Shown here piece after piece: positions 4,318-64,000 of a stretch of 64,000 nt of DNA. Position numbers and translations under genes: made by a program. How positions within the stretch are numbered: the first letter of the stretch is position 1; each line of letters begins with the position of its first letter. The notes below the pieces were generated by a model. The model was not told where the DNA came from. It saw only the letters and a program-made list of their open reading frames with translations, and did no database searches. The stretch is from a virus. Lineage: Duplodnaviria > Heunggongvirae > Uroviricota > Caudoviricetes. The stretch lies in IMG/VR virus record IMGVR_UViG_3300028374_000006. One strand, written 5' to 3'.

Positions 4318-4361
4318 CCTTTTGTACTCCGTGGGCACAGAACCTCAAGGAGGCTTTCCCG

Positions 4362-9716: not shown

Positions 9717-9784
9717 TAATGTATTTATTTTCCACGCTCGCTGACACTTGTACGGTCAAACTCTGATACCAGTGAGATGACGTA

Positions 9785-10228: not shown

Positions 10229-10233
10229 AAGGC

Positions 10234-10668: not shown

Positions 10669-10669
10669 T

Positions 10670-11902: not shown

Positions 11903-12088
11903 ATGAATAACAAGTACGTGATCAAAGTAGGGCACCCACTATTACGCCCCGGCTTGGAAATCGAGACGGAGGCCAGCGAAAAGTACGTGGTTGCTGTAGT
12001 TAACACCCTGATGGGTAAAGTAAGGGAGATCAATGACGGAAAAGACGGAGAAGAAATTGCAAATCGGACTCGACCTTCTGAAACTTGA
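11903..12088 (+). CDS. hypothetical small protein (overlaps dut start)
   Basis: 61-aa ORF; its 56-nt overlap with dut makes it uncertain. Confidence 0.25.
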   Translation: MNNKYVIKVGHPLLRPGLEIETEASEKYVVAVVNTLMGKVREINDGKDGEEIANRTRPSET

Positions 12089-12707
12089 TGGTTTCGAGGT
12101 CAAGGTTCACGGCAAGCATGGTCTGGTGCCTAAGCAGGCTGAACCCGGCTCTGCCGGATACGACCTGTACGCCCCTCCGGGTAACGATATCCACATGCCG
12201 TTCCAGAGCCGCCGTATGGTGGATACTGGCGTGGTTGTGCAGACCCCGATCAAGCTATTCATGCTCCTCGTGCCCCGAAGTAGCACCGGAACCAAGCGGG
12301 CGCGCTCTGTGCGGATTGCCAACACGGTAGGTATCATTGACCCGAGCTATCAGGGCAAAGACGATACCCTCAAGGTGTATCTGGAACGTGGTGCCCGCCG
12401 CAAAACGTATGTGGGAACCTTTGAGAGTTCACCGGGCTTGGGTACTAACATGGCACAAGCTAATCGGAAATTTGGGGTGTCTATGACTCCTGAAGATACG
12501 GAGTTGCTCAAGGTGGGTGCTCCCAACCAGCCGATTTTCGACGTGTTTACCCACCAAGAGAAGGCGGAAGATACGCTCGTGGTCGAAGCGGGGAGCCGGT
12601 TCGCTCAGGTGATCTTCATTCCCTATGCTCGACCCGATTTGGTGGAAGCTGCTATTGAGGAGTTTGACGAACTCGACCGTGGCGGGTTTGGTTCTACAGG
12701 TAAGTGA
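12033..12707 (+). CDS. dut: dUTP diphosphatase (long form)
   Basis: 'GSAGYDL' (motif 2), 'RSSTG', and 'GIIDPSYQG' (motif 3). Confidence 0.85.
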   Translation: MTEKTEKKLQIGLDLLKLDGFEVKVHGKHGLVPKQAEPGSAGYDLYAPPGNDIHMPFQSRRMVDTGVVVQTPIKLFMLLVPRSSTGTKRARSVRIANTVGIIDPSYQGKDDTLKVYLERGARRKTYVGTFESSPGLGTNMAQANRKFGVSMTPEDTELLKVGAPNQPIFDVFTHQEKAEDTLVVEAGSRFAQVIFIPYARPDLVEAAIEEFDELDRGGFGSTGK

Positions 12708-12783
12708 AGTTACTCAGGCAAGTAAGGGTGGTGGGCCTTGGTGGTAAGCTACGGTCGAGTTCGTCATTTCACTGCGGTGATGG

Positions 12784-13842
12784 CTAGAACGATACGTATT
12801 TTTGGTACGCTGTCAAGGTCCATTTTTCCCAAAATTCCGCATCCGCTTTTTCCGGCAAGTTGCTGTCCAAATCCTTAGACTTCTCAATGAGTTCGGGCAG
12901 GTCGTCTTGAACTTGGTCGTAATCCACCTCACCCAACTTGACTTTCCGAAGGAAATCCCGGTCTTTCAGGGGGAATTGGATACCACCGGTTTTCAGAAGC
13001 TCTTCGAGTTCGAAGATGACCCGGTAAGCGTGGCTGACCGCTTTCCAATCAACCCCATCTTTCGCCCGCCGCGCACGATTACCGTATTTGCCGACGAGTT
13101 TCTTTAGAACTTTAGCCACATCTTGAATCTTGACCCGCATATCGAATTGCTTGCCATTGATTTCTAGCAATTCAATAGGATCGTCTTGGCCGTCGAGGTC
13201 CTTTTCTACGATGAAAACCACTTCGTTTTTGGGGATTTCATCGATGATATCTTCGACGCGGTAGTACGGGTTTTGGCCCATCAAGAAGTGCATCGCATCT
13301 TCTGTGGCCTGCAGCCGGGCACCTTTCATGCCATACTTTTTGGCTTGCCCCATACAGTAACCTACGAACGGCCACACATTGGACGTAAGCAGCTTGTCCT
13401 TGTTATCCCTTAGATTGGCGTACAGGTCCGTTGAGAAGACCACACAGTCGCCCGTAGCGTGTAGTAGCTCTACGGCATAGGTCTGCCCTTTCATCGCATC
13501 TGAAAGGAACTTGCGGATTTCGATGAATTCGATATCGAGGTCGTCGGCACCGTTCCGCCCTTTGCCGCCACTGCTGGACGTAACCGTTTCCCGGTCTTTG
13601 CCGAGTACGATGCTGTTCAACGAGGACATGAAAACAGCTTTCAGGTCCAGATCGGAAGTGGGCGTAGTTGTGCCGTGCAGGTGTGACCCGAACTTGGATA
13701 GAAACAGGACATTTTCCAACGGCCCCTTTCGGAAGTCGTGGCCTTTACTGTTCACCAAGTCCGGGTCAACAAACCCTACGGAATACAGACCGTTGGATTG
13801 AAGCTCCGTCGTCACTTGTTTTAGTAGTTCGTCATGTTTCAT
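12784..13842 (-). CDS. Pol-beta-superfamily nucleotidyltransferase (PF10127/RlaP-like)
   Basis: 'GSHLHGTTTPTSDLDL' (GS-x9-DxD) NTase signature, with downstream 'AVELLHA' and 'HAYRVIFELEELLKTG' helices typical of this family. Confidence 0.65.
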   Translation of the reverse strand: MKHDELLKQVTTELQSNGLYSVGFVDPDLVNSKGHDFRKGPLENVLFLSKFGSHLHGTTTPTSDLDLKAVFMSSLNSIVLGKDRETVTSSSGGKGRNGADDLDIEFIEIRKFLSDAMKGQTYAVELLHATGDCVVFSTDLYANLRDNKDKLLTSNVWPFVGYCMGQAKKYGMKGARLQATEDAMHFLMGQNPYYRVEDIIDEIPKNEVVFIVEKDLDGQDDPIELLEINGKQFDMRVKIQDVAKVLKKLVGKYGNRARRAKDGVDWKAVSHAYRVIFELEELLKTGGIQFPLKDRDFLRKVKLGEVDYDQVQDDLPELIEKSKDLDSNLPEKADAEFWEKWTLTAYQKYVSF

Positions 13843-18715: not shown

Positions 18716-21073
18716 ATGGCAACCAATCAGTACTCAGTCTTACCGCTCCGAAACACGGTTCTTTTCCCCCACGCGGTTGTTCCGATTGGAGTCGGACGCC
18801 CCAAAAGCGTGGCCCTACTCGAAGAAGTTATGGGTGGGGACAAACAGATGGTCTTGCTTTCGCAACGTGACGAAGACGTTGACGAGCCGACGCAAGACGA
18901 TCTTTACGAGATTGGTACCGTCTGTTCGGTCTTGAAAGTTATTTCACAGGATGGGACGTACACGGCCATCGTACAGGGCGAGCGACGCATCCGCTTGACT
19001 GATTTGGAAGACGACCCGGACAAGGGTTATTTTTTCGGACAGTTCGAAGAGGTAGAAGAGCGCCGCACCTTTGACGATGCGGAAGGGGCTTTGGTCAAGT
19101 CGCTCAAGGATACGGCGACCGAGGTTATCGAAAATAGCCCGGACATCCCCTCCGAGTCTATCCAACTCATTCAAAACATGGAGGATCCGTCACGCTTGGC
19201 GGATTTCATCACCACCCATGCCAGCTTGGACGTCGCTGAGAAGCAAGAATTTTTGAGCGAGTTCGACATCAACACGCGGCTGGAAGGGTGCATCCGCATC
19301 ATGACGGAGCAAATCGAAATCTCGAAGGTGTCCGAAAAAATCCGGGAACGGATTCGTGAGCAATCGGACAGCCAGCAGCGAGAATATTACCTCCGTCAAC
19401 AGTTGAAAGCGATCCAAGAACAGCTTGGGACTTTCAACGACGAGACCGACGAATTGGAAACCCGCATTGAAGAGGCGGGTATGCCCGAAGAAGCCTACGA
19501 GGCTGCGATGAAGCAGTTCAACCGGCTTTCGGGGATGCAACAATCGTCGTCGGAGTACAGCGTCACCCTGAACTATATCGAAACGCTCATTGAAGTCCCG
19601 TGGGATCGCAAGAGCGAAGATAGCCTCAATCTGACGCGGGCACAGGCAGTCCTCGACGACGACCATTACGGTTTGGAAAAGGTCAAGGACCGCATCATTG
19701 AGTACCTCGCTGTTCGCGGCCTCAAGGCCGATATGAAAGGGCCTATCCTGTGCCTCCACGGACCCCCCGGCGTTGGTAAAACTTCGCTAGGTCGGTCGAT
19801 CGCCCGTACCTTGGGCCGGAAGTTCCAGCGTATCAGCCTTGGTGGTGTTCACGACGAGTCCGAGATTCGCGGCCACCGTCGTACCTATGTCGGAGCGCTT
19901 CCGGGACGTATTGTCCAAGCGGTCACGAAAGCAGGCACGACGAACCCCGTGATTTTGCTTGACGAAATCGACAAGGTGGGGCGTGATTTCCGGGGCGACC
20001 CGAGTGCGGCCCTCTTGGAGGTGTTGGATCCTGAGCAAAACCACGCATTCAGCGACCACTATCTGGAAGTAGATCTCGACCTTTCCCAAGTGCTGTTTAT
20101 CGCTACGGCCAACGGTCTGGACACGATTTCCCCGCCGCTTCGCGACCGGATGGAAATCATCGACGTGCCTTCTTACACGTTGTACGAAAAGCAGCAGATT
20201 GCCCAGCGGTTCCTTATCCCGAAGCAAATCGAAGCGCACGGCATCAGCGAAGACAATATCGAATTCCCCGAGGACACGGTTCGATACGTGGTCGACAAGT
20301 ACACCCGCGAAGCCGGTGTGCGTAACCTTGAGCGTCGGTTCGCGGATCTTTGCCGTAGCGTAGCGGTCGAGGTTGCTAAATCCGATCCCGATGATAGGGC
20401 TGCCATTCATATCGAAGTGGATAACGATTTTGTCCAAGAGGCCCTTGGACCGGAGCGTTACCTTTCCGAAGTGGCCCAACGGGTTAACCGAGTGGGTGTG
20501 GCGACGGGACTGGCATGGACGCAAAGCGGTGGCGATATCCTGTTCATCGAAGCGCAAGAAATGCCCGGTAAAGGCGACCTGAAACTCACCGGCCAACTTG
20601 GCGATGTGATGAAAGAGTCGGTTCACGCTGCCCTTTCCTACATCCGAGCCAATTCCGAGAAGTTCGGTGTGGACGCTAATTTCAACGAGAAGAAGTCCGA
20701 CGTCCATATCCACGTCCCAGCGGGGGCTATCCCCAAGGATGGTCCTAGCGCCGGTATCACGATGTTCACGGCCCTTCTGAGCCGCCTCACGAACGTCAAA
20801 GTGCGCAAAGACGTTGCTATGACGGGTGAAATCACCCTGTCGGGTAATGTGCTTCCCGTGGGCGGTATCAAGGAGAAGATTATCGCGGCGCACCGTGCGG
20901 GAATCAAGACGATCGTCATGCCCGCTATTTGCAAGAAAGACCTTGTGGATGTGGACGAGCACGTGAAGGGTGATTTGGAATTCCACTTTGTGGATGACGT
21001 CGCCGAGCTTTTGCCGCTGGTTTTCGAAAAAGACCCGGTTGAAGCGGTGAAGGCTGCACCTGCCGCTGAGTAA
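18716..21073 (+). CDS. lon: ATP-dependent Lon protease
   Basis: Lon N-domain 'LPLRNTVLFPHAVVPI', Walker A 'GPPGVGKTS', catalytic 'PKDGPSAGITM'. Confidence 0.92.
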   Translation: MATNQYSVLPLRNTVLFPHAVVPIGVGRPKSVALLEEVMGGDKQMVLLSQRDEDVDEPTQDDLYEIGTVCSVLKVISQDGTYTAIVQGERRIRLTDLEDDPDKGYFFGQFEEVEERRTFDDAEGALVKSLKDTATEVIENSPDIPSESIQLIQNMEDPSRLADFITTHASLDVAEKQEFLSEFDINTRLEGCIRIMTEQIEISKVSEKIRERIREQSDSQQREYYLRQQLKAIQEQLGTFNDETDELETRIEEAGMPEEAYEAAMKQFNRLSGMQQSSSEYSVTLNYIETLIEVPWDRKSEDSLNLTRAQAVLDDDHYGLEKVKDRIIEYLAVRGLKADMKGPILCLHGPPGVGKTSLGRSIARTLGRKFQRISLGGVHDESEIRGHRRTYVGALPGRIVQAVTKAGTTNPVILLDEIDKVGRDFRGDPSAALLEVLDPEQNHAFSDHYLEVDLDLSQVLFIATANGLDTISPPLRDRMEIIDVPSYTLYEKQQIAQRFLIPKQIEAHGISEDNIEFPEDTVRYVVDKYTREAGVRNLERRFADLCRSVAVEVAKSDPDDRAAIHIEVDNDFVQEALGPERYLSEVAQRVNRVGVATGLAWTQSGGDILFIEAQEMPGKGDLKLTGQLGDVMKESVHAALSYIRANSEKFGVDANFNEKKSDVHIHVPAGAIPKDGPSAGITMFTALLSRLTNVKVRKDVAMTGEITLSGNVLPVGGIKEKIIAAHRAGIKTIVMPAICKKDLVDVDEHVKGDLEFHFVDDVAELLPLVFEKDPVEAVKAAPAAE

Positions 21074-51015: not shown

Positions 51016-51272
51016 CGGACGACCGGATATTCAAGGCGGTCGAATTGCTTGCTGCTGCAACGGTCAATGAACCTAAAAGCTACAAGCGAAGAGGGTACCG
51101 GATCACGATGTTAGACTTGCTCGAACCTCGCGGGTCCACCAAAGTTCCCAGCTTACAGTTGCGTAGCTTAGTGGCGTATTTGAAGGTCAATATGGGCGAA
51201 GACGACCCGGACTATATACTCATGAAACAAGTCCAAGACGTACTGGAAGGTAAAGATGGCTCCAACACTTGA
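51012..51272 (+). CDS. hypothetical protein (tandem paralog B)
   Basis: 'VELLAAATVNEPKSY...ITMLDLLEPR'. Confidence 0.5.
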   Translation: MTDDRIFKAVELLAAATVNEPKSYKRRGYRITMLDLLEPRGSTKVPSLQLRSLVAYLKVNMGEDDPDYILMKQVQDVLEGKDGSNT

Positions 51273-51804
51273 CAAAATCGTTGTGATCGACGTAGAATCT
51301 ACTTGCTGGAAAGGTAGCGTACCGCCAGATCAAGTGTCCGAGATCATTGAGATAGGCGTGTGTACCTTGGACCCTTACCTTCGGAAGATCGAGGGTAAGC
51401 AAAGCATCCTCGTCAAGCCGATCCAGAGCGACGTCAGCGCCTTTTGTAACGAACTCACTACCATCACACCGGAAATGGTTTCGGACGCCGGTACGCTGGC
51501 TGAGGCACTTGATAAGTTGCACGACGAGTATGATACGCCCAACCGCCTGTGGGCTTCGTGGGGCGACTATGATCGCACCATGTTCGAAAAGGAGTGTGAG
51601 CGAAAAGGGTTGGACTACCCCTTTGGGAGATCCCACCAGAACGCAAAGACCCTTTTCGGTTTGATGTACGGGTACAAGAAAGCCCCCGGAATGACGAGGG
51701 CGCTCAAGAGACTAGATTTCGAACTCGAAGGAACCCATCACAGGGGCCACGACGACGCCTATAATATCGCCCGCATCTTGCGGGAATGCTTGAAAGGACC
51801 ATGA
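51256..51804 (+). CDS. DEDDh 3'-5' exonuclease (ERI-1/DnaQ-like)
   Basis: Exo I 'IVVIDVESTCW' and Exo III 'HRGHDDAYNIARI'. Confidence 0.75.
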   Translation: MAPTLDKIVVIDVESTCWKGSVPPDQVSEIIEIGVCTLDPYLRKIEGKQSILVKPIQSDVSAFCNELTTITPEMVSDAGTLAEALDKLHDEYDTPNRLWASWGDYDRTMFEKECERKGLDYPFGRSHQNAKTLFGLMYGYKKAPGMTRALKRLDFELEGTHHRGHDDAYNIARILRECLKGP

Positions 51805-51805: not shown

Positions 51806-52375
51806 ATGTTCGTGTTTTTAGACCTTGAAACTGGCGGTATCCCGTCGAAAGAGTATCCCCTTTCCGAGATCCCGATCTTGGAAGTGGCTATTGTCGTGAC
51901 CGGCGATGACCTTGTTGAACTGGCCCACAAGCAGGTGGTGATCAGTCAGCCAGAATACAAGCTGGAAGGGATGGGTGATTGGGCGAAGGAGCACCACACT
52001 AAAACGGGCCTGTTGGCCGCTTCCCGATCCGTCACATTGGCTCAAGGGGCAGCCGGGCTTCAGTTGACGGATTGGCTCTATTCGAATTTCCTGTATCGTC
52101 ACGGGGCCGATGGTTCCGACCTGAAGCCTCCGATGTGTGGTAACAGTATCCACTACGATCGTAAGTTCCTCGAAGAGCACATGCCGCAGTTGGCGTCACT
52201 TTTCCACTATCGGAACATTGACGTATCGACTCTCAAAGAGTTAGGCAAGGCTTGGGGTATCCCCCCATTTGAAAAGGAGGGCGGTGTAGAGCATCGTGCC
52301 CTCGATGATGTTCGCCATTCGATCGACGAATTGGCGCATTACCGACAGTATTTCAACGTAGGAGATAGCAAATGA
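51806..52375 (+). CDS. orn: oligoribonuclease
   Basis: 'FVFLDLETGG', 'CGNSIHYDRKFLEEHMPQLASLFHYRNIDVSTLKELGKAWG', 'HRALDDVRHSIDELAHYR' closely follow Orn conserved blocks. Confidence 0.85.
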   Translation: MFVFLDLETGGIPSKEYPLSEIPILEVAIVVTGDDLVELAHKQVVISQPEYKLEGMGDWAKEHHTKTGLLAASRSVTLAQGAAGLQLTDWLYSNFLYRHGADGSDLKPPMCGNSIHYDRKFLEEHMPQLASLFHYRNIDVSTLKELGKAWGIPPFEKEGGVEHRALDDVRHSIDELAHYRQYFNVGDSK

Positions 52376-52500
52376 TTTATATCGTGATAGCAATGGTAGC
52401 AGCTTTTCTTCTGGCCTGTGGTTTGGTAGCGTATATACGCAACAGCCAGACCACTTTCGAAATCAAGGAAGACGACAATGACAGTAGCCGAACTGATTGA
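52372..52500 (+). CDS. tiny single-TM protein (42 aa)
   Basis: MIYIVIAMVAAFLLACGLVAYI...; ATGA overlap with the orn stop. Not in the ORF track (under 60 aa). Confidence 0.35.
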   Translation: MIYIVIAMVAAFLLACGLVAYIRNSQTTFEIKEDDNDSSRTD

Positions 52501-52630
52501 AGTGTTGCAGGGACTCGACCCGGACCGAAAGGTGATTTTGCAAAAGGACGCGGAAGGTAACGGGTTTTCCCCATTCGGAGACTGGTACGAGGCATTCGAC
52601 GAGTTGCACGCAGAGAGGTTTTACGCATGA
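52478..52630 (+). CDS. small hypothetical protein (50 aa)
   Basis: Stop overlaps the XRE start (ATGA). Confidence 0.3.
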   Translation: MTVAELIEVLQGLDPDRKVILQKDAEGNGFSPFGDWYEAFDELHAERFYA

Positions 52631-52953
52631 ACTTCGCCCAGATGGTGCGACAAAACAGGACCGACCTCAACATCGGCGTCCGGGAGCTTGCCCGCAGGGC
52701 GGATTGCTCGCCCACGATGGTCGCTCACATGGAGTCCGGGGTGTCGATGCCCGGATACGAGCTGACCGTGCGACTGGCCGAGGAACTCGACCTGCCGGTG
52801 GACCGCCTGTTGATCGAGACCGGCTTCGTCCCCAGGGACGCGCGGCCCCGGACGGCATTTGAAGCGGAGCTGATGCGCCGGGTTCGCAAGTTGTCGCGCG
52901 CCGACCAGGAGCGGCTGCTGAAATCGGGCGCGCTCGGAAAAGGAGAGGCATGA
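52627..52953 (+). CDS. XRE-family (Cro/C1-type) HTH transcriptional regulator
   Basis: 'LNIGVRELARRADCSPTMVAHMESG' HTH_3-like. Very GC-rich compared with the flanking sequence. Confidence 0.7.
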   Translation: MNFAQMVRQNRTDLNIGVRELARRADCSPTMVAHMESGVSMPGYELTVRLAEELDLPVDRLLIETGFVPRDARPRTAFEAELMRRVRKLSRADQERLLKSGALGKGEA

Positions 52954-53135
52954 TTGACGATCGGAGATTTTTCACCTGGATGGACCACGGAGGCAGCGTG
53001 AACGCACCGGCTGAAGATAACGAAAGGCAGAAGCAACGGGCGACCGGACGTCGCTACCTCGACATGGACGAATACTGGGCGTGGAAGGCCGCGCGCGAAG
53101 GCGATAATCAACTGACGCAAGCAGCTGCAGAATGA
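52950..53135 (+). CDS. small hypothetical protein (61 aa)
   Basis: ATGA overlap with the XRE gene. Confidence 0.4.
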   Translation: MIDDRRFFTWMDHGGSVNAPAEDNERQKQRATGRRYLDMDEYWAWKAAREGDNQLTQAAAE

Positions 53136-53216
53136 CGACGCCAACATGAGTGAGCACTGAGACTCGAAGCCGAAAGCCACCGCCTCTAACGTCTGATCCA
53201 ATCAAGGAACTGAGTT

Positions 53217-56200
53217 ATGCTTAGCCTCGATCAATTCAAGAGCCTCGTCGTCAAGACTGCTGATTTTTCACAGGAAACGCCTTCAAAGCCAACCGGCCGC
53301 TCTTCAGCTTTTGGTCGCGGGGCAAATGAGCGGCTGGAACCAAGGCAGCCGACAAAGAAAGCGCCGTTCATTTTACAACTTCTGAAAGAGGCGAATTTCG
53401 GTAGCAGAGCACAGAAATTCCCAAAGCCGGACGAGGTATTTGGAGGGCGTGACGCCTCAGCTTTTCATTCGAATACCGAAGAGCTGCGGGACTATCTGCC
53501 CGAGCGAGTCGCCACATTCCGCTCCGAGCACCATGACACGCTCATCCTCGAGCTCGAGAACACAGCCACGAACTTGCTCGAAACTTCGTTATTTAAGCCG
53601 CTGCAATCAGAAAGCCGTCTTGAAGACGCGCTCACACGGGTTGCTCAGGCATTTTTGCGCGGTTACGAAAAGGCACACAACAGCAACCCATCGGTCGGCG
53701 CCGCGCAGGAAGACACCCTATGCGTCGTGGCGGTCCGCGATGACCGAAAGAGTAAGAAGGAGGAGGCACCTTATCTGGTCTGTTTCGCTACTAAGTGGCA
53801 TGACAAATACAGTGGCGAAAGATCCCTCGTTCACTTTTTTCTGCGTCAGCAGTGCGTCGAGTGGGAACCGCGACTTCGCGATACCCATCTGACGCAGATC
53901 TATGAAGGTTACTTCAGCAAGCTGAACAGCCCTGAGTGGCAGAACGCTTTCATCACCAGTGAAGAATGGAAAGCTGCGAATTGCGTACTCGAAGCCTTCG
54001 ACGAAAACCGAGGGGAAGATGTAGTTCGGGGCCATATGAAAGAGCTGCTCGAACAGGTCGCGCGCAATTTCAAGCTCGACGCTGATGAAAGTGGCGACCG
54101 CCTACACTTTACGAGAACGCGTGATCATGCCATCGGTTTGGATCCAGACAAAAAACTTGAGAGTCAAAAGGCCGCATTTGAGGCGACTGTTGTCCGGGAT
54201 CTCAAGGAGCATTTGCTTGGATATATCATCTACTGTGTCGACTCGACAGATGAGGCAGAGGCTTTGCGTACCTCACTCTCTCAAAACTGCTTCGAGAACG
54301 TTTTGGTACTAGCACCAGATGAGGACGATGATTCCCTTCGCTTTGAAGTTTGGCAGGCAAACAGGGGACTCAAGGACAAACTCGTCCAGGCGGGAGCACA
54401 GGAGAGCCTCGCTGCACGGCTTATCAGCACATTGGCTCGCTTTTTCGTTGTCGGTCAATCCGATGTCATTGATGCCAACGGGCTTGCCACGCAACTCGCC
54501 GCGCGCGCGAAGCACTTGCGGCAGTCCGTTCAACTCGCTTTGCGACGAGAAGCTGGTGACGGTCCGCTCAGCAAGCTTTATGCGTCCTACAAGACCAACC
54601 TCGTTCACTCGTTGAGTGAAAAGGACTTCTCCGACTCCTATGCCCAGACAGTTACTTACGCTCTGTTAGCCGCTCGATGGCTCTCCCGCCATTCCGATCG
54701 ACGCTTTCGCCTCGCTGATGCCCAAGAGTACCTTCCAATCACGAGCCCGTTTCTGTCGAGTCTCGCCACCAAGCTGCTCAATATGGATCGCTCGCCACGA
54801 GTAAGGTGGTTACTACAGGACATCACGAGCTTGCTAGAGCGGATAGATGTCGAAGCGGTTTTCGAGTCTGAACGAAATAATGACCTCATTAACTCCGATC
54901 CAATCATCCACTTCTACGAGCCGTTCTTGGATGCTTACGACAAGAGTATCCGAGAGGAACGCGGGGTCTACTACACTCCCGATGAAGTTGTCGCAGCCAT
55001 GGTGAACCTGACTGACGACCTGGTAAAGACGCGCTTCGAACTCCCGCTCGGCCTCGCCGACGACACCAGGTGGAAAGACTACGCGAATCGACACGGAATG
55101 GAGATTCCCAAAGGAATCTCACCGAATGATTTCGTCGTCCAGATCCTCGACCCGGCCACAGGCACCGGCACGTTTTTAAAGCAGGTGGTAACGCTGATTT
55201 TCGAACGCATGATGGACCACTGGCGAGACAAGGGATTGGACAACGGTCCACGCCAGGCGGCATGGGAAAGCTACGTGCGCGATTCGCTACTGCCTCGCCT
55301 TCACGGCTTCGAAATCATTATGGCGCCGTACGTAATCTGCCATCTCTGCTTACAGTTAGCACTTGAAGAGACAGGCTTTAGCTTCGAGTCAGGGGGCAGA
55401 TTAAAGGTGCTGCTCACGAATACCTTAGAGACATCTACACCTGCACAGACAGACCTCACCTTAAGCGAAGAACTCGCAGCGGAAACTGCGGAAGCGGCCA
55501 CTACCAAGGAGAGCCCTGGCATCTCCGTGGTTATTGGTAATCCCCCCTACTCGAAGATTTCCAGCAACCTCAATGAGGAAGCCGTCGAATACATCAAGCC
55601 GTTCAGATATCTCAACGAGCAGAAAATCGTTGAAAGAGGCGCACTCGCGTTCGAGATGACGCTTCAAGATGATTACGTCAAGTTCTTCGGCTTTCTTCTT
55701 GCGAAGTTAAGCGCAAACCCGATTGCCGTTGGGAGTTACATTACAAATTTCCGATTCCTCGACTCGAACTACCTGCGAGGGATGAGGGAAAGCCTTCGCA
55801 GCAACTTCGATAGTATTCACATTCTCAATCTCGGAGGGCATCGTACTGAGCAAGAGTTCCTTCCAATGCCAGATGAGAATGTTTTTAAGATTGAACAAGG
55901 GAACGCTATCTCATTGCTAGCTCGAGACGTGACTAGCGCTAAGAAGTCGCCTCAATATTACAGAGTTTGGGGCGAACGCCGGGAAAAGCTTGACTGGCTT
56001 AATGACATATCACTTAACGATGTCGACTGGAGAAAGGTGACCACTCCACAGGGTCGAAACGACTTCGGCGTATCATCATCCGCAGCAGAAGAGTTTGCGC
56101 GCTGGCCCGCGCTTGATGAGGTTTTCCGCAAACAAAGTGGCGCGATCATTACCTCACGCGACAATCTCACGATTGATTTTTCGAAGGAGGTGCTTCTCAA

Positions 56201-57278
56201 CAAAGTGCGTAGATTTGCCGAAAGTCCAGAAGGGAGCGCTAAACTACAAGAAGAAATTGGCTTCTCGATCAAAAAGAGTTGGGATGCTGAAAAGTGTAAG
56301 GAGCAACTTAAGGAGGACGGCATCGACAAAAGACACATTCGCCCAATCCTCTACCGACCTTTTGATCTTCGCAAAGTCTTCTACTTTCAATCGCTCATCG
56401 ACACTCCCTCACGGCCGATTTGCAATCACATTCATGGCGGACCTAACCTTGTTCTCCTCACTCCGAAGACCAAGACCACTACCGAATTTTCGCACGTCTT
56501 TATCAGCCAACACGCAGTCGAAAAGAAATCTGCATCCAACGATAGAGCCACCACAATGTTTCCATTGTGGCTCTATCCTGAGCAAACAGCAAACCAGCCA
56601 GACGTGCTAAAGGGGCTCCGTTCTTCAAACTTCAGTCAATCCTTTATTGGTAACTTCACTAAATTTAGCTCCTCGTCCGAACGTGGAACGCTGGATGAAC
56701 GGGTGTTTACCTATATATATGCAGTCTTGCATGCTCCTGGATATCGACAACGTTATGGAAAGCAACTCAAAAACCAATTCCCGCGCATTCCGTACCCGTC
56801 AAACGCCAATCTCTTCAACGAACTGGCGCCTCTTGGAAATGAGATTCAAGCCATTCACACCGGGGTGACTTCGAGCAAGCCGCACAAGGCGCCAGACTGC
56901 AGCGTGGAATTCCACAACGGTGGCAGCACAAAGGTTGCGAAAGGCTACCCAAAGTACAAAGAAGAAGAAAACGCGATTTTCATCAACAGCAAATCCTCAT
57001 TCAATCAAGTCACCTTAGAAGTATGGGAATACGTACTCGGTGGCTATCCTGCGTGCAAAAAGTGGCTAAAGGACAGAAAGGGACGGAGTCTTTCTGCGAA
57101 AGAGACAGACACTTACATTGCCGTAGTTTGTGCAATTGAGGAAACAATCCGCCTATCTGCTGCAATTGAAGAGGTTGTTGTACGCTACGGTGGATGGCCA
57201 GACGCGTTTGCAGCAGCGGGGGAGGACGCCGACGTGGCTGTGCCCGAGGTGGTTGAGGAACGCGAGTTGACGACGTGA
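53217..57278 (+). CDS. 1353-aa fused gamma-class N6-adenine DNA methyltransferase protein (type IIG/IIL restriction-modification or BREX PglX-like)
   Basis: Motif I 'ILDPATGTGTFL' followed by motif IV 'VVIGNPPYSK' in the central region. About 600-aa N-terminal and 500-aa C-terminal regions without helicase Walker motifs. Confidence 0.7.
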   Translation: MLSLDQFKSLVVKTADFSQETPSKPTGRSSAFGRGANERLEPRQPTKKAPFILQLLKEANFGSRAQKFPKPDEVFGGRDASAFHSNTEELRDYLPERVATFRSEHHDTLILELENTATNLLETSLFKPLQSESRLEDALTRVAQAFLRGYEKAHNSNPSVGAAQEDTLCVVAVRDDRKSKKEEAPYLVCFATKWHDKYSGERSLVHFFLRQQCVEWEPRLRDTHLTQIYEGYFSKLNSPEWQNAFITSEEWKAANCVLEAFDENRGEDVVRGHMKELLEQVARNFKLDADESGDRLHFTRTRDHAIGLDPDKKLESQKAAFEATVVRDLKEHLLGYIIYCVDSTDEAEALRTSLSQNCFENVLVLAPDEDDDSLRFEVWQANRGLKDKLVQAGAQESLAARLISTLARFFVVGQSDVIDANGLATQLAARAKHLRQSVQLALRREAGDGPLSKLYASYKTNLVHSLSEKDFSDSYAQTVTYALLAARWLSRHSDRRFRLADAQEYLPITSPFLSSLATKLLNMDRSPRVRWLLQDITSLLERIDVEAVFESERNNDLINSDPIIHFYEPFLDAYDKSIREERGVYYTPDEVVAAMVNLTDDLVKTRFELPLGLADDTRWKDYANRHGMEIPKGISPNDFVVQILDPATGTGTFLKQVVTLIFERMMDHWRDKGLDNGPRQAAWESYVRDSLLPRLHGFEIIMAPYVICHLCLQLALEETGFSFESGGRLKVLLTNTLETSTPAQTDLTLSEELAAETAEAATTKESPGISVVIGNPPYSKISSNLNEEAVEYIKPFRYLNEQKIVERGALAFEMTLQDDYVKFFGFLLAKLSANPIAVGSYITNFRFLDSNYLRGMRESLRSNFDSIHILNLGGHRTEQEFLPMPDENVFKIEQGNAISLLARDVTSAKKSPQYYRVWGERREKLDWLNDISLNDVDWRKVTTPQGRNDFGVSSSAAEEFARWPALDEVFRKQSGAIITSRDNLTIDFSKEVLLNKVRRFAESPEGSAKLQEEIGFSIKKSWDAEKCKEQLKEDGIDKRHIRPILYRPFDLRKVFYFQSLIDTPSRPICNHIHGGPNLVLLTPKTKTTTEFSHVFISQHAVEKKSASNDRATTMFPLWLYPEQTANQPDVLKGLRSSNFSQSFIGNFTKFSSSSERGTLDERVFTYIYAVLHAPGYRQRYGKQLKNQFPRIPYPSNANLFNELAPLGNEIQAIHTGVTSSKPHKAPDCSVEFHNGGSTKVAKGYPKYKEEENAIFINSKSSFNQVTLEVWEYVLGGYPACKKWLKDRKGRSLSAKETDTYIAVVCAIEETIRLSAAIEEVVVRYGGWPDAFAAAGEDADVAVPEVVEERELTT

Positions 57279-57367
57279 AGCCATCCTTCGGAAAAACTTC
57301 GCGTCACCTCGGGGGGTATGACATCGCGAAGTGACTTCGTGACCACAAAATGCCTACCGTATAAACT

Positions 57368-58339
57368 ATGAAACCTGAAGGCAACTCGCCCAAAGTCAAG
57401 TTCGACAGCGACGTCATCAATCCCTTTGAACAGATCTGGGCCGACTTCATCGACTCCGAAGGCGTCCATTCGGAATTCAGCCGGGCAGACTATGGCTTCA
57501 TTCAGCACGAGTTCGGTCCCCAACTCCGTGACCATGTGCTCGGCGGGATCGACGGCATAGGTGATCCCTACCTGCCACAACGAACCTCGAAGTCCGACGC
57601 GCGGAGTACCCTTGTCCGTATCGAGAAGAATATCGCCCTCGAGGCGTTTGGGCTTGTGACGGAGAAAGACCACGAGAGCCCACCGCAGTCCCACGGCAAA
57701 CTCGCGCTCGATTTCGCGCCCAGATACGACAGACACCATGTCGTCCTGTACTTGAAGTTCAAGCTACCTGGAGGCGGACAGAAGCGCTTCCAAAAGGAAG
57801 GCATACTCTCCTCGAAGGCGGAGACTCTTGTTGCTGAGTTCTTTCCCGACGCCACGTATCAACCTGCGGTGAGATTCGAAGGGCTCAGTCTATCCTTTGT
57901 GTTCGAGCTGACCAAGATACCGTTCGCCTCTCTTAGAGATACGTCGCCCGAGCAGTGGCGGACTGTGCTGCAAAATCTGCGAGAACGCTGGCTCGAAGCG
58001 GAGAGCCAGATTTCTCGCCTGTACCAATCGGAAGTATTCGAGGACTTCCTGCTCGAGCTCGGCTACGGGAAGACCGAACCACCTAATGTCGAGGAGTTCG
58101 TCGAACCCATTGATGTCACGGATCGCGGCGTATGGGTCATGCGGCCTGGCGCCGGCGGTCGTCTGTGGGAGAGATGGTGTGGCGAAGAAGTTATTAGCAT
58201 GGGCTATGGCGATGCCTTCTCGGACGACCTGGAGCCGCTCGCCTCCAAGGACGAAGTCAAGAACTCCGTAACAGTGTACTGGTTCAGCGTGAAATGGAGT
58301 TTCCGCTCCTCGGTTGATGTGACTCAGCTTACCTGCTGA
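57368..58339 (+). CDS. hypothetical 323-aa protein, 3' end abutting/overlapping the IS remnant
   Basis: ORF downstream of the giant MTase; the last 16 nt overlap the inverted transposase fragment. Confidence 0.5.
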   Translation: MKPEGNSPKVKFDSDVINPFEQIWADFIDSEGVHSEFSRADYGFIQHEFGPQLRDHVLGGIDGIGDPYLPQRTSKSDARSTLVRIEKNIALEAFGLVTEKDHESPPQSHGKLALDFAPRYDRHHVVLYLKFKLPGGGQKRFQKEGILSSKAETLVAEFFPDATYQPAVRFEGLSLSFVFELTKIPFASLRDTSPEQWRTVLQNLRERWLEAESQISRLYQSEVFEDFLLELGYGKTEPPNVEEFVEPIDVTDRGVWVMRPGAGGRLWERWCGEEVISMGYGDAFSDDLEPLASKDEVKNSVTVYWFSVKWSFRSSVDVTQLTC

Positions 58340-58650
58340 GCACGGATTGCCTCTCTTGCCTTCTGACGAGCTTCCGCTCGCTTTTTCCTCGCCGCTTCGA
58401 TCTTCCGATCACGCTCGGCGAAAATCTCTTTCTCCCGGCCAGCGAGTTTGTCCATCGGGGTGATGTAGCCGATGGCGCTGTGCAGGCGTCGCATATTGTA
58501 GTGCTCGATGTACTTTGCCACGGTGCACCTGGCGTCGTCGAGGCTAAGCGGCGGCTGCGGCCTCAGGCACTCGTCTTTGATGGTGCGAAAGAAACGCTTC
58601 GATTGCGGCGCTAGGTGCGCTGAACCATTTCGGTGATTTATTTGCGGATA
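58324..58650 (-). mobile_element. IS3/IS481-family transposase C-terminal fragment (remnant; N-terminal catalytic part missing)
   Basis: 'SKRFFRTIKDECL...YIEHYNMRRLHSAIGYITPMDK' matches the integrase-core C-terminal consensus (ERFNRTLKEE...YNxxRPHSSLGYxTP). Confidence 0.7.
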
Positions 58651-58826
58651 TGACCACCAACGATGAAGTGAGCACGTTGGATAAAGCAATGCTTTCCTCA
58701 CTGGAAGGGTATATCAATTTGTATCTCCGAACCAAAGCTGATATAGTCCCGGCGACCTATCAGGTCTCCGCATAAACAGTTTCGGGGGCGGGCTACCAAT
58801 CCCCGCCCCTTTGGAAGTAGGTTACT

Positions 58827-59987
58827 ATGAGTAAATCGTGGAATGTGCTAGAGGGGGATTGTCGAGATCGCCTTCGGGAACTCCCAGATCAATCTATCCA
58901 CATGGTGTGGACTAGTCCCCCGTACTACAAGCTAAGGGACTATGGTCATGATGCTCAGATAGGTCTGGAGCCGACGCCAGATGAGTTCGTCCAGACGATG
59001 GTTACGGTCATGCGCGAGGTTCATCGCGTCCTCCGGGATGACGGTACGTTATGGCTTAATATCGGCGATTCTTATGGTGGTTCTATAGTTGGCGGTAGGG
59101 CGAAAGATCTGCAAGGCTTGGCATGGCGTGTGGCTCTAGCCCTACAAGAAGATGGCTGGTATTTGCGCAACGATATCATCTGGGCCAAGGGGGTAAGTAA
59201 TCAACAGGGTTTTGTCGAAGCCGCCGCCTCCTCAATGCTTAGGCAAGGTATCTCACCTGAAAAAGTTGATTCTATTGTATCCGAACTGGAACTATCGGTG
59301 GGAAATGCGAAGCCAGAGAGTGTTACGGATAGATTCACGCAGGCACACGAATATTTGTTTTTGCTGTCGAAAAAACCGCGTTATTTTTTCGACCACCTAG
59401 CCTCCAGAGAGGTGGGGGTTACAGGTAGTCCCCGCAATCGAAGAACGGTGTGGCTCGTACCTACGAAACCTTTTGATGGGGCACACTTCGCGGCGGCCCC
59501 AGAAGACTTAGTTGCACCGTGTATAGAGGCCGGAACATCTCAGAGGGGCTGTTGTGCTGCTTGCGGGGCACCCTATACACGTCTAGTTAAAGTTGAGGGG
59601 GAAGAAGGTACCCCCTTAGAATCGAGGTCTTCTTCGCATATTCGCCAACCCGGTAACACCCCAATTAAAGATCACCCATTTGGGTATGCTAGGGATCGTA
59701 AAATGTTAGGGTGGGAACCCACATGCTTTTGCTCTACCGATAAAGCTCCTGTGCCCTGCACGGTCTTAGATCCTTTTGCCGGGGCAGGGACAACTTTGCT
59801 GATGGCAGATCAATTGAACCGTCAATCTATTGGTATCGAACTTAATCCCGATTATGTTGAGATCATAGAAAAACGGATTTTGCATTATCGTAATGAATTA
59901 CCCCCATTTGATGAGAGATATCTTCCTGTAGAATCGGACAGTGAATTGCCTTCAGAAATTCCTTTCGAGCAGTTGCTTAATTTTTGA
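58827..59987 (+). CDS. beta-class DNA methyltransferase (N4-cytosine/N6-adenine, ParB-MTase type), apparently orphan
   Basis: Motif IV 'WTSPPYY' precedes motif I 'VLDPFAGAGTTL'. Confidence 0.8.
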   Translation: MSKSWNVLEGDCRDRLRELPDQSIHMVWTSPPYYKLRDYGHDAQIGLEPTPDEFVQTMVTVMREVHRVLRDDGTLWLNIGDSYGGSIVGGRAKDLQGLAWRVALALQEDGWYLRNDIIWAKGVSNQQGFVEAAASSMLRQGISPEKVDSIVSELELSVGNAKPESVTDRFTQAHEYLFLLSKKPRYFFDHLASREVGVTGSPRNRRTVWLVPTKPFDGAHFAAAPEDLVAPCIEAGTSQRGCCAACGAPYTRLVKVEGEEGTPLESRSSSHIRQPGNTPIKDHPFGYARDRKMLGWEPTCFCSTDKAPVPCTVLDPFAGAGTTLLMADQLNRQSIGIELNPDYVEIIEKRILHYRNELPPFDERYLPVESDSELPSEIPFEQLLNF

Positions 59988-60886: not shown

Positions 60887-61024
60887 TGTTTCGCCGGTTT
60901 CTAAAGATGTTCCGGCGTCCGTGCGATTGTCCCGTTGACGTGCATGTACGCTAGCTCCATGCTAGGGGCGCTCAAACCTGCAGATTTAACACGATTGCAG
61001 CCATTCTTAAGTTCGGAGAGGACG

Positions 61025-62959
61025 ATGGATACCGACTCGACTGCCGATGCAGTTGCACAAGCCCCTGAACGGGTCGAGAGGACGAGCACCAACCCACTCG
61101 ACGACCAAGTCGAGAAGCTGAAGACCCTCTTTCCTGAGTGCGTCTCAGAGGGTCGTGTCGACTTCGAGCGGCTTAAGGCAGTCTTGGGCGACGAGCTGGA
61201 GGGAGAGGACGCCTATCGGCTGACGTGGGCTGGGAAGAAGGACGCTTTTCAACAGGTCCAGTCGCCAAGCCGAGGTACTCTCGCCGTCGATGACGACGAG
61301 TCGCTCTACTTCGACCACACCGACCATATTTTCATCGAAGGTGAAAATCTCGAAGTCCTGAAGACGCTCTACAAGTCGTATTACGGGCGCGTGAAGATGA
61401 CTTACATCGATCCGCCGTACAATACCGGCGGCGACTTCATCTACTCTGATGACTTCTCCCAGTCCCTCGATCAATATCTCGCCGCTACCAGGCAGGCTGA
61501 CGGCGAGGGTAACGTCCTGTCGAGCAATCCCGAGACAAGCGGGCGGTTTCACTCCTCATGGCTGTCGATGATGTATCCTCGGCTGTTCCTAGCTCGCCAG
61601 TTGCTACGCGACGACGGTGTGATTTTCGTATCCATCGACGACAACGAAGTCCACAACCTTCGCCTGCTGATGAACGAGGTGTTCGGCGAGGAAAACTTCG
61701 TTACCAACGTGGTTTGGCACAAGGTTTTCGCGTCCAAGGCGTCTGCTCGTTACTTTTCAGAAAGTCATGACCACATCCTCGTTTACGCCAAAGACAAGGA
61801 AAACTGGGAGCGCAATCTTCTGCCGCGAACCGAGGAGCAGAAGTCCGAGTACACCAACCCCGACAATGATCCTCGTGGACCATGGCGCTCGGTTTCGTTG
61901 TCCGCACGGAATGAATACTCCGACGGCTTGTGGGGTACGACGACGCCCAGCGGGCGGGTGATTGAGGGGCCTCCTATTGGCAGTTATTGGAAGGTCTCGA
62001 AAGAGAAATTTGAAGAACTATGTGATGACAACAGGATCTACTGGGGCAGCGAGGGGGACGGGATCCCCAGAAGAAAGTTTTTTCTATCGGAGGTACAGGA
62101 CGGCATAGTTCCCAACACCGTTTGGCGCTACGAGGACGTTGGACACACTCAGAAGGCAAAAAAAGAATTGTTGAAGTGGGTTGACTTCGAAAACACCGCG
62201 AACGTGTTAAACACAGTGAAACCTCCGCGACTAATCCGTCGAATGCTTGAAATTGGCACGGACCCCGACACTGAGGATATTGTACTCGATTTCTTTGCCG
62301 GCAGTGCAGCAACCGGCCAGGCGGTCGTCGAGCACAATGCCGAGGATGGTGGCAATCGGCGTTTTGTTTGTGTCCAGTTTCCTGAGCCTCTGCCTAAACC
62401 TGAGCCGAAGCTGAAGACCATCGCCGATATTGCTCGCGTACGGCTTCGGAACCTCCGTGACTCACTTACTGGCGATGACCACCAGCTGACCCTTGAAGGT
62501 TCGAAGGACGTCGATGCTGGCTTCAAAGCGCTTCGATTGGCCGACTCGAATCTAAGGCAGTGGCAACCACCCGAGGAGGACGACCCAGACGCTCTGATCG
62601 AGCAGATGGCGATCTTCGACGACGGACTAAAGGACGATGTGCGGCACAAGGACGTGCTGTACGAGCTGATCCTACGTGAAGGCTTTTCGCTGAACTCCGA
62701 GGTCGAAGAAGTCAAAACAAAGAGCCAGATGACCTACAAGGTCACTGACTCCAAGGAAGGCGTGGCCGAGCAGGATGAAGATGCGGCGGCACCGAGGGCA
62801 GATCGTTCGTTTTGCGTCTGCCTCGACGAAGAGATCGGCTTCGAGATCTTGGACGATCTGCAGGTGGACACCGAGCAGGTCTTCATCTGCCGTGACAGCG
62901 CGATCGACGATGCGCTGAAGGTCAATCTATCGCTCGAATGCATCCTGAAGGTGATTTGA
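61025..62959 (+). CDS. mod: type III restriction-modification methyltransferase (Mod), beta-class N6-adenine
   Basis: 'IFIEGENLEVLKTL', motif IV 'YIDPPYNTG', motif I 'VLDFFAGSAATGQA'. GGAGAGG RBS before ATG 61025. Confidence 0.8.
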   Translation: MDTDSTADAVAQAPERVERTSTNPLDDQVEKLKTLFPECVSEGRVDFERLKAVLGDELEGEDAYRLTWAGKKDAFQQVQSPSRGTLAVDDDESLYFDHTDHIFIEGENLEVLKTLYKSYYGRVKMTYIDPPYNTGGDFIYSDDFSQSLDQYLAATRQADGEGNVLSSNPETSGRFHSSWLSMMYPRLFLARQLLRDDGVIFVSIDDNEVHNLRLLMNEVFGEENFVTNVVWHKVFASKASARYFSESHDHILVYAKDKENWERNLLPRTEEQKSEYTNPDNDPRGPWRSVSLSARNEYSDGLWGTTTPSGRVIEGPPIGSYWKVSKEKFEELCDDNRIYWGSEGDGIPRRKFFLSEVQDGIVPNTVWRYEDVGHTQKAKKELLKWVDFENTANVLNTVKPPRLIRRMLEIGTDPDTEDIVLDFFAGSAATGQAVVEHNAEDGGNRRFVCVQFPEPLPKPEPKLKTIADIARVRLRNLRDSLTGDDHQLTLEGSKDVDAGFKALRLADSNLRQWQPPEEDDPDALIEQMAIFDDGLKDDVRHKDVLYELILREGFSLNSEVEEVKTKSQMTYKVTDSKEGVAEQDEDAAAPRADRSFCVCLDEEIGFEILDDLQVDTEQVFICRDSAIDDALKVNLSLECILKVI

Positions 62960-62961: not shown

Positions 62962-64000
62962 ATGAAGTTCCGCTTCGATCCGAACCTCGACTTCCAGACA
63001 CGAGCCATTGAATCGGTCGTGCAGCTCTTTGACGGTGCTACGCGGCTGGAGACGGGCTTTGAGCTAATCGCCGAAGACGGTGTCATCTCGAACGACCTGA
63101 CGCTGACTGAAGGCGATCTGCTGGAGAATCTGCGCGCTGTACAAGCCGACGAGGAGCTTCAGGGCGGCGCTGCCATCCCAGCCGGTAAGAGCCTCGACAG
63201 CCTCGACTTCTCAATCGAGATGGAGACAGGTACGGGCAAGACCTACGTCTACCTCCGCACCGCCTTCGAATTGCACAAAAAGCACGGCTTCCGAAAGTTC
63301 ATCATCGTGGTGCCGTCGGTCGCGATTCGAAAGGGTGTGATCAAGACCTTCGAGATGACGAAAGACCACTTCGGCCAGCTATACGACCACCTGCCTTACC
63401 GCTTCTATGAGTACGACTCGGCTAACCTATCGAGGGTGCGCCAGTTCACGTCGAGCAACGATGTCGAGTTCATGATCATGACGCTGGCGTCGTTCGACAA
63501 AGAGATCAACGTCTTTAACCGATCTCAGGATCGGATGATGGGGCGAAGTCCGCTCGAACTTGTGCAGAATACGCGTCCTATCCTGATCCTCGACGAGCCG
63601 CAGAATATGGAGGGGGCCAAGGGTAAGAAGGCTCTCGAAAGCCTCAACCCGCTGTTCAAGCTGCGGTACTCGGCGACGCACCGGAAGCTCTACAACCTCG
63701 TCTACCGCTTCACCCCTGTCGACGCCTACCGCCAAGGATTCGTCAAAAAGATCGAGGTCGCCTCTGTCGTCCAGGACCACGATGCCAACCGCGCCTATGT
63801 CGAGTGTAAGAGCGTCAAAGCCAAGAAGACGGTCGTCAGCGCAAAGTTGAAGGTCTACGTGCGGGGCAAGTCGGGGCCGGAGCCGAAGTACCGCACCGTG
63901 CAAGCTGGCGATGACTTGGAGGAGGTCACCGGCTTGTCCGTCTACGAAGGCTGGGTGGTCGAGTCTGTAGACGCTGGATACGGCGAGGTGTCCTTCCGAA
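62962..64000 (+). CDS. res: type III restriction enzyme Res subunit (partial, continues beyond window)
   Basis: Helicase motif I 'METGTGKT', motif II 'LILDEPQN'. Starts 3 nt after the mod stop; open at the window end. Confidence 0.75.
   Translation, partial: MKFRFDPNLDFQTRAIESVVQLFDGATRLETGFELIAEDGVISNDLTLTEGDLLENLRAVQADEELQGGAAIPAGKSLDSLDFSIEMETGTGKTYVYLRTAFELHKKHGFRKFIIVVPSVAIRKGVIKTFEMTKDHFGQLYDHLPYRFYEYDSANLSRVRQFTSSNDVEFMIMTLASFDKEINVFNRSQDRMMGRSPLELVQNTRPILILDEPQNMEGAKGKKALESLNPLFKLRYSATHRKLYNLVYRFTPVDAYRQGFVKKIEVASVVQDHDANRAYVECKSVKAKKTVVSAKLKVYVRGKSGPEPKYRTVQAGDDLEEVTGLSVYEGWVVESVDAGYGEVSFR

Follow-up and report, generated by a model that had tools for sequence, protein, structure and literature searches.

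An N6-adenine DNA methyltransferase on a large mobile element as the probable remnant of a SNF2-methylase-McrB-McrC system

The stretch analysed here, 64,000 nucleotides (nt) of the IMG/VR virus record IMGVR_UViG_3300028374_000006 (Caudoviricetes) and referred to below as the window, carries the gene of a 1353-amino-acid (aa) N6-adenine DNA methyltransferase, followed by an open reading frame (ORF) of 323 aa. The methylase is probably a stand-alone protective enzyme left over from a dismantled four-gene system, in which a SNF2 helicase, a methylase of this kind, a McrB-like GTPase and the nuclease McrC are encoded one after the other. Since the element retains nothing of this system beyond the methylase gene and the beginning of its neighbour, truncated by a decayed insertion sequence (IS), the enzyme most likely just methylates DNA to escape restriction.

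Both ORFs had been proposed in an earlier reading of the same DNA from its letters alone (the sequence-only reading), and were reproduced exactly in the ORF list and translations at 53217-57278 (+ strand, 1353 aa) and 57368-58339 (+ strand, 323 aa). The features on which the argument depends are as follows.

53217..57278, + strand: N6-adenine DNA methyltransferase, multidomain, 1353 aa (whole ORF, 4062 nt)
53499..53921, + strand: domain A of the methylase, about aa 95-235, conserved alpha/beta (AlphaFold model with a predicted local distance difference test score of about 60-75; 16- and 12-sequence alignments)
53970..54401, + strand: domain B, aa 252-395, predicted inactivated PD-(D/E)xK nuclease domain (profile-profile alignment)
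54408..54902, + strand: helical connector, aa 398-562 (model helices 398-550; tblastn; hhalign)
54903..56096, + strand: gamma-class N6-adenine methyltransferase domain (Pfam N6_Mtase/Eco57I)
56118..57110, + strand: target-recognition domain Type_ISP_C, aa 968-1298 (Pfam 1e-72)
57368..58274, + strand: putative McrB-like 5' stub, aa 1-302 of the 323-aa ORF (homology to the McrB protein P0018 and gene position)
58275..58339, + strand: IS-derived tail of the 323-aa ORF, aa 303-323 and stop codon (first 25 bp are the IS terminal repeat)
58275..58610, - strand: IS3-family-like remnant, comprising a terminal repeat and the C-terminal ~95 codons of a transposase (Pfam rve_3 7e-15)

The bacterial operon and its methylase

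A genome scan covering one genome per species, queried with the N-terminal alignment of the methylase, found homologues at 10 bacterial loci in Myxococcales, Desulfobacterales, Verrucomicrobiota, Xenophilus, Rhodanobacter and others. The matches had tblastn E-values of 1e-31 to 1e-54 over aa 1-400 and full-length phmmer E-values of 1e-74 to 1e-220, the weakest coming from contig-truncated copies. A SNF2 helicase gene lies directly 5' of the methylase homologue at every one of the ten loci, as well as on a metagenome contig (L017), and genes for a McrB-like protein and McrC come next wherever enough downstream sequence was available (7/7 genome loci, or 8/8 when the contig is counted). The sequence-only reading had seen a compact two-gene module in the window; what is found there is the remainder of this conserved four-gene operon.

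The Xenophilus locus (L014; Xenophilus sp. Marseille-Q4582, NZ_CAKAKO010000001.1, 521787-538647) illustrates the arrangement, with an HTH-WYL-WCX regulator, a 1491-aa SNF2 helicase, a 1342-aa methylase (its start overlapping the stop of the helicase gene), a 663-aa AAA_5 McrB-like protein and a 545-aa McrC. On the contig L017, which encodes the methylase relative P0004, the order is a BrxC/D-like ATPase, a 2151-aa DEAD+SNF2 protein, the methylase, McrB (AAA_5, McrB_lid) and McrC. BREX-style accessories are thus seen at two of the bacterial operons, namely the BrxR-like HTH-WYL-WCX regulator of L014 (2271-3251) and the BrxC/BrxD-like ATPase of L017 (444-1910). At the Verrucomicrobiota locus L008, the ORF that follows the methylase (11963-13354) starts with MICDFCNSS and runs without a stop for more than 450 aa up to the end of the contig. 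It does not resemble the McrB-like proteins encoded at the remaining loci and may represent a different N-terminal region or a different partner.

In the window, tblastn with four SNF2 proteins gave no match, and an XRE-family regulator gene and a 61-aa ORF sit upstream of the methylase instead. Searches with the McrB-like and McrC proteins (tblastn) revealed no further remnant, and no AAA_5, McrB_lid or McrC sequence is present in the window. Judged by sequence, the long N-terminal methylase of the operon is there, with neither the SNF2 gene upstream nor complete McrB and McrC genes downstream.

The catalytic half of the methylase is well preserved. Pfam recognised Type_ISP_C at aa 968-1298 (E 1e-72), Eco57I at aa 741-873 and the start of N6_Mtase at aa 563-601, with no match in aa 1-560 even when this part was scanned alone at E<=5. 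Motif I (DPATGTGTFL, aa 645, nt 55149-55178) and motif IV (NPPY, aa 775, nt 55539-55550) were located as the sequence-only reading had given them, and both fall in invariant columns of the family alignment. Sequence matches to solved structures include the type IIL enzyme DrdV (7lo5; E 2e-38, aa 566-1287 against 285-976) and the type ISP enzymes LlaGI (5ffj) and LlaBIII (4xqk). With the motifs in invariant columns and with these structure and domain matches, the methylase and its specificity domain are intact. Of the 13 PADLOC families matched by the protein, the best was the REBASE-type model 'REase_MTase_IIG' (6.7e-162), and PglX, DrmMI and the other system-specific PADLOC models did not match. 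A Walker A motif is absent across the whole 1353 aa. The earlier description of a central gamma-class methylase related to type IIG/IIL enzymes, without a helicase and without an active PD-(D/E)xK nuclease, therefore stands.

The N-terminal region separates two groups of relatives. Full-length relatives are few, being four metagenomic proteins (P0002-P0005) that are 33-42% identical over at least 95% of the query, and together with the bacterial homologues they are referred to as the long clade. Proteins of ~1100 aa (the short clade) align with the methylase only from about aa 250 on. Domain A is restricted to the long clade and absent from these single-chain relatives, and its invariant residues are E112, D137, G161, Q164, T167, C169, D175, C189 and T192. 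The helical connector is common to type IIL and type ISP enzymes; tblastn matches to plasmid genes annotated as 'type ISP restriction/modification enzyme' covered aa 397-565 only.

Between the two lies domain B, which corresponds to the nuclease of the short clade. Members of the latter carry a textbook nuclease motif, e.g. KPDFAV...GYVELK. Profile-profile alignment (hhalign) matched long-clade residues 252-565 to short-clade residues 17-308 with a probability of 99.4% and an E-value of 7e-22, placing the short-clade P-D on A320-F321 and GY-V-E-L-K on G335-Y336-I337-I338-Y339-C340. In this placement the catalytic D, E and K are replaced by F321, I338 and C340, the last being invariant across the long clade, and nuclease activity would presumably be lost. 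A search of both terminal regions, which had been proposed along with the sequence-only reading, thus yielded a nuclease-homologous domain and Type_ISP_C and no PglX model. The earlier statement that there is no obvious PD-(D/E)xK is right as regards an active motif; a nuclease-fold domain is nevertheless present, stripped of its catalytic residues.

As a control, three loci of short-clade proteins with an intact PD...ExK were inspected, and these had unrelated genes around them and no helicase or McrBC neighbours. Homologues with the dead motif lie in the operon and relatives with the intact motif stand alone, so the loss of the nuclease motif goes together with the presence of a McrBC partner. 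In the intact bacterial system, McrC would probably supply in trans the cleavage lost by the methylase, McrB and the SNF2 protein would supply translocation or remodelling driven by nucleoside triphosphates, and methylation would mark self. Such a mechanism would follow a LlaJI-like logic.

Methylases without such partners also occur elsewhere. On the contigs of P0002 and P0003 (L004-L006, L019), one or two such methylases each are found after small ORFs, with no helicase, no McrBC and no gene like the 323-aa ORF. One of these contigs, L004, has two tandem paralogues of 1397 and 1346 aa (1628-5821, 6684-10724). Over aa 1-180 the protein P0003 (L019 1072-5271) matches P0002 at 100% identity; from about aa 240 to 480 its identity to the second L004 paralogue is 97-100%, and afterwards it diverges from both. 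The methylase of the window is 80-85% identical to P0002 around aa 480-600 and 5-30% identical in the specificity domain, the part in which the closest relatives differ most. By its sequence, P0003 is a chimera of the L004 paralogues with a specificity domain of its own, a mosaic that fits recombination changing specificity. Downstream of these methylases, L004 10725-13821 and L019 5272-9478 are unusually empty stretches of 3-4 kb that hold few called genes and no ORF above about 190 aa. A metagenome scaffold (L075) carries two tandem short-clade enzymes of ~1120 aa (3358-6723 and 7001-10363) with an intact nuclease motif and Type_ISP_C, so that tandem duplication is also seen in stand-alone type IIG-like relatives.

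The 323-aa ORF and the insertion sequence

The 323-aa ORF matched no family in Pfam, PADLOC (also with the whole ORF at E<=10), NCBIfam or PHROGs, and a word-indexed database of 5.8 billion proteins returned only the ORF itself. A HMMER pass over 1.84 billion representatives found a sole other homologue, P0018 (E 4e-5), in which aa 4-157 align with aa 82-233 of the ORF (nt 57611-58066) at 27% identity, in a specificity-type N-terminal domain. Its AAA_5 (aa 603-758) and McrB_lid domains make P0018 a McrB, and a McrC gene directly follows its own.

A second similarity involves the McrB-like proteins of the operon. These have a domain of ~135 aa just before the GTPase, beginning '...YWKVAPGRNGIAWPEWRQRGIAAIGWPDLGDIS...' and showing the pattern 'W-x-x-x-P-G...W..W...IGW' in intact homologues. 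Residues 255-291 of the ORF (nt 58130-58240), 'VWVMRPGAGGRLWERWCGEEVISMGYGDAFSDDLEPL', align to the first 35 positions of this pre-GTPase domain. The Smith-Waterman score was 56, compared with 26.7 +/- 4.9 for shuffled sequences, none of 2000 of which reached it; a small hidden Markov model gave the segment an E-value of 2.8e-4 for a single comparison, attained by one shuffle in 2000. PADLOC returned no match with the 64-aa C-terminal fragment either and, as it was silent on the ORF, the proposed link to a 'PDC-S02'-like domain comes from our own alignment tests. The match is to be taken as supporting evidence, not as proof.

The surviving part of the IS defines where the gene was broken. A minus-strand ORF (58324-58701) encodes an rve_3 transposase fragment (Pfam 7e-15) and overlaps the 3' end of the 323-aa ORF. 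The 25-mer at 58275-58299, TGTACTGGTTCAGCGTGAAATGGAG, has exact copies in 50 unrelated metagenome contigs from many samples (L020-L069), and when these were aligned on it one flank was unrelated in every contig and the other fell into a few related groups. This is the pattern expected of a terminal inverted repeat and sets the end of the IS at 58275. Other copies are homologous to it over transposase residues 32-94 and, at the DNA level, over 58388-58581, with no homology beyond about 58610, which leaves a remnant of ~335 bp consisting of one terminal repeat and ~95 transposase codons. We take it to belong to the 'IS150-like' subgroup, with 'TGTACTG' ends. A blastn search of the IS region against plasmids gave no match. 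Behind the 25-bp repeat the IS interiors form several clearly different sequence groups, so the terminus is far better conserved than the elements.

It follows that aa 1-302 of the ORF are native, and that aa 303-323 and the stop codon are read from IS sequence. The proposal that an IS3-type remnant clips the partner ORF holds, with a boundary exactly at 58275, and that of a module inactivated by IS decay holds as a possibility. The ORF is not itself part of the IS, whose sequence accounts for the last 21 codons only. The native part breaks off 37-48 residues into the ~135-aa pre-GTPase domain, at an IS boundary that precedes the place of the AAA+ (AAA_5) GTPase domain, which is absent from the ORF.

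Three independent lines, namely the position of the mcrB gene in the operon, the only homologue being a McrB N-terminus, and the break inside the pre-GTPase domain, agree in identifying the ORF, at the level of sequence, as the 5' stub of a McrB-like gene. It had earlier been viewed as an unknown partner protein; homology to P0018 and operon position assign it to the N-terminus of a McrB-like subunit, and its product is most likely a non-functional leftover. In the simplest history, the IS would have landed in the mcrB-like gene, and a later deletion would have taken away most of the IS itself together with mcrC and what was left of mcrB.

Competing explanations and genomic setting

If the methylase is a stand-alone remnant of the four-gene system, the element would now express only this enzyme, which would methylate adenines in the sequence that its specificity domain recognises. 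In the hosts of the element, such marking would shield its DNA against cognate SNF2-methylase-McrBC systems and against other restriction enzymes whose sites overlap.

Several points weigh against this picture. The similarity of the stub to the operon's own McrB-like proteins is weak, being a 37-residue match with a p of about 5e-4, and phmmer and blastp searches of the ORF against those proteins gave nothing significant beyond this short segment. A type III mod-res pair lies 2.6 kb downstream, so the island is not purely anti-restriction. The N-terminal ~400 aa of the partner-less copies are 50-54% identical, as against 42% over the full length; a simple protective role does not explain such conservation, which leaves room for a docking or decoy function. 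The invariant acids E112, D137 and D175 of domain A are kept and could be catalytic in an unrecognised way. No virion proteins were identified within the window, so the element is likely, not proven, to be a large phage. Finally, that the enzyme methylates DNA, at which site it does so, and that it does not cut are all predictions made from sequence.

Were the acids of domain A catalytic, the 1353-aa protein might be a self-sufficient type IIG/IIL restriction-modification enzyme whose cleavage site has moved to that domain. We consider this unlikely: the nuclease-homologous domain has F, I and C for D, E and K; domain A has no conserved lysine, K193 being V, Q or R in several members, and its E205 of bacterial members is V in the phage clade. 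The bacterial architecture, moreover, always has McrC as a separate nuclease, and the relatives with an intact motif are those that stand alone.

The conserved N-terminus could also serve as an anti-defence decoy, its domains docking on a host SNF2 helicase or McrBC and poisoning or redirecting the complex, beside or instead of methylation. The clade associated with helicase and McrBC is the only one to have these N-terminal 400 aa, which are indeed the best-conserved part of the partner-less copies, and such copies occur in at least three distinct contigs. This role nonetheless seems improbable, given that the intact methylase motifs and specificity domain would be needless for a pure decoy, and that divergent specificity domains fit selection on methylation specificity.

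That the whole module is decaying cargo, with a methylase no longer functional or expressed, is very unlikely. Its neighbour gene was destroyed by an IS that has itself decayed, and no sigma-70-like promoter was found between 52.2 and 59 kb in a scan that covers one promoter type only; terminator-like sites in the scanned region were at chance level. The 4062-nt ORF is, however, uninterrupted with all motifs in invariant columns, the exact 1353-aa protein recurs on 7 contigs from several samples (the longest of 230,823 bp), and the paralogues in related contigs are intact.

A working two-gene defence or anti-defence module, with the 323-aa protein as a true partner such as a sensor or DNA-binding subunit, can be set aside as highly improbable: the two ORFs adjoin on the same strand and recur identical in several samples, and the stub keeps the whole N-terminal domain of aa 82-233, yet the protein has neither ATPase nor nuclease, ends in IS-derived codons part of the way through a domain, and was found only as itself among the 5.8 and 1.84 billion proteins and in none of the related contigs.

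The stand-alone protective methylase remains the preferred explanation. Tetranucleotide usage in 4-kb windows is atypical at 52-58 kb (z 2.4-3.1) and at 60-64 kb (z 3.8), and in no other 4-kb window of the 64 kb does z exceed 1; this check, suggested with the sequence-only reading, bears out an atypical region. The GC-shifted island described there was confirmed in part. The upstream patch at 52377-53216 (GC content 0.58), the native part of the 323-aa ORF (0.568) and the IS remnant (0.577) are GC-rich, but the methylase gene is at average GC (0.515 vs a whole-window mean of 0.519). Upstream of the methylase, the XRE regulator and small protein that had been noted were found.

52627..52953, + strand: XRE-family helix-turn-helix regulator, 108 aa (Pfam HTH_19/HTH_3; PADLOC HTH_VI 2.8e-8)
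52950..53135, + strand: 61-aa ORF between the XRE regulator and the methylase (no family match in Pfam, PADLOC, NCBIfam or PHROGs)

The XRE gene also matched the NCBIfam model phage_RstR at 1.2e-6, under the cut-off, and by its position the protein is a possible controller of the methylase gene. Just 5' of the regulator and methylase lie two adjoining RNase_T-family 3'-5' exonuclease genes (51256-51804 and 51806-52375, + strand, 182 and 189 aa). On the other side of the IS remnant, a 386-aa beta-class N6/N4 DNA methyltransferase is encoded at 58827-59987 (+ strand; N6_N4_Mtase 3e-37); it was matched in two stretches, which suggests an insertion in the middle of the protein. A homologue 46% identical to it is encoded at L004 99-560, upstream of both methylase paralogues, and its presence beside them points to the three methylase genes as a recurring cluster. 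Further downstream is the type III Mod (60935-62959, + strand, 674 aa; PADLOC MTase_III 1.3e-179), with a Res ORF directly 3' of it (62962-64000, + strand) that contains a ResIII domain with TGTGKT and DEPQ motifs and runs off the window. The Mod-Res pair looks complete and occupies the region with the most atypical tetranucleotide usage in the window.

Regarding the element as a whole, nearly all long ORFs of the window are on the + strand, and PHROG matches include a topoisomerase II large subunit (2e-162), a nucleotidyltransferase, a metal-dependent hydrolase, a His-tRNA-synthetase-like protein and several families of unknown function. A complete Lon protease of 785 aa is encoded at 18716-21073 (+ strand), with substrate-binding, AAA+, lid and S16 protease domains (phrog_15585, 2.9e-288); its nearest homologues in the phage collection are 41-46% identical. 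Megablast of 52600-58800 against phage and plasmid collections gave no match, and a profile scan of viral contigs with the N-terminal alignment of the methylase found no relative.

Relation to known systems and significance

Several known systems share parts of the architecture described here. As in type IIL/IIG enzymes (DrdV 7lo5; BpuSI 3s1s; PADLOC 'IIG' models), methylase motifs I and IV and a C-terminal target-recognition domain are combined in one chain; unlike them, this protein lacks the catalytic D/E/K and has an extra N-terminal extension of ~250 aa with domain A, and the bacterial members of its family sit between a SNF2 helicase and McrBC and do not stand alone. In type ISP enzymes (LlaGI 5ffj, LlaBIII 4xqk) the methylase and Type_ISP_C are homologous to those of this protein, whose chain, however, holds no Mrr nuclease and no helicase-like ATPase; the bacterial operon has a separate SNF2 ATPase and McrC nuclease.

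Systems of the LlaJI type consist of a McrB-like R1 and a McrC-like R2 with protective methylases, and have two small methylases and no SNF2 helicase. The likeness lies in the pairing of a McrBC-type motor-nuclease with a methylase whose presumed role is to mark self. PADLOC REase_II models match the AAA_5 region of the operon's McrB-like protein, which may be of LlaJI type, with homology shown for the AAA_5 core only. Phages, for their part, encode orphan DNA methyltransferases used against restriction, and in the window a mobile element likewise carries a methylase with no matching nuclease and with other methylase genes nearby. Unlike small orphan enzymes of the Dam/CcrM type, however, the 1353-aa protein derives from a defence system with several subunits, and it has a fossil nuclease domain and a fossil neighbour gene.

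The combination of McrBC with methylases has been noticed before. A census of McrBC (Bell et al. 2024, PMC11090510) notes two prevalent associations, one with a DISARM-like cassette and the other, 'surprisingly', with DNA methyltransferases; a figure legend there names SWI2/SNF2 and 'PglX-like' methylases, and the analysis is deferred to a 'forthcoming publication'. The components listed (SWI2/SNF2, large methylase, McrB-like GTPase, McrC) are those of the bacterial operon described here; the paper does not describe the architecture of the methylase or phage-borne copies, and the window holds only the methylase and the mcrB stub. A BrxHII-like SNF2 helicase and a PglX-like methylase form a pair common to DISARM class I (DrmD-DrmMI) and the new ARMADA (ArmA-ArmB) (bioRxiv 10.1101/2025.09.15.676423). 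As described, these share with the operon a SNF2/BrxHII-like helicase gene followed by an N6-adenine methylase of more than 1000 aa with a long region before the S-adenosylmethionine motif, but they use YprA-like helicases, not McrBC. The operon's SNF2 protein matches DrmD models over the Helicase_C part only, and the methylase matches no DrmMI or PglX model of PADLOC. The literature search found no description of the SNF2-methylase-McrBC operon itself, of the dead nuclease domain in its methylase, or of phage-borne copies.

BREX/PglX, DISARM DrmMI and MADS were rejected as assignments for the methylase, no model matching apart from a partial 21-bit match to MAD2 against a cut-off of 720 bits. 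The fit to BREX PglX entertained in the sequence-only reading is accordingly not supported; its remark that other BREX genes are missing was correct for the window ORFs scanned.

The methylase of the window unites traits of three known kinds, namely methylases derived from type IIL enzymes, restriction coupled to McrBC, and orphan methylases of phages; the bacterial system and the possible decoy role are the more novel prospects. More speculatively, and with rather low confidence, the operon of SNF2, dead-nuclease methylase, McrB and McrC could constitute a class of restriction system not characterised so far, in which a type IIL enzyme dispensed with its own nuclease and took on McrBC as motor-nuclease together with a remodelling helicase. 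On this view, the methylase alone would have been captured repeatedly by large phages, which kept its docking N-terminus and shuffled specificity domains between paralogues, and which could in this way both methylate their DNA in advance and disturb the host complex.

The finding points to a clear evolutionary step in which the nuclease of a single-chain type IIL enzyme died as cleavage passed to McrBC. The bacterial four-gene system was noticed in the McrBC census and neither described nor tested there. The window gives direct evidence of a large mobile element with only the 'antidote' half of such a system, to which a fossil of the 'poison' half is still attached. The operons of Xenophilus and Myxococcales would offer the defence for experimental work, and the phage methylases with swapped specificity domains its natural counter-measure.

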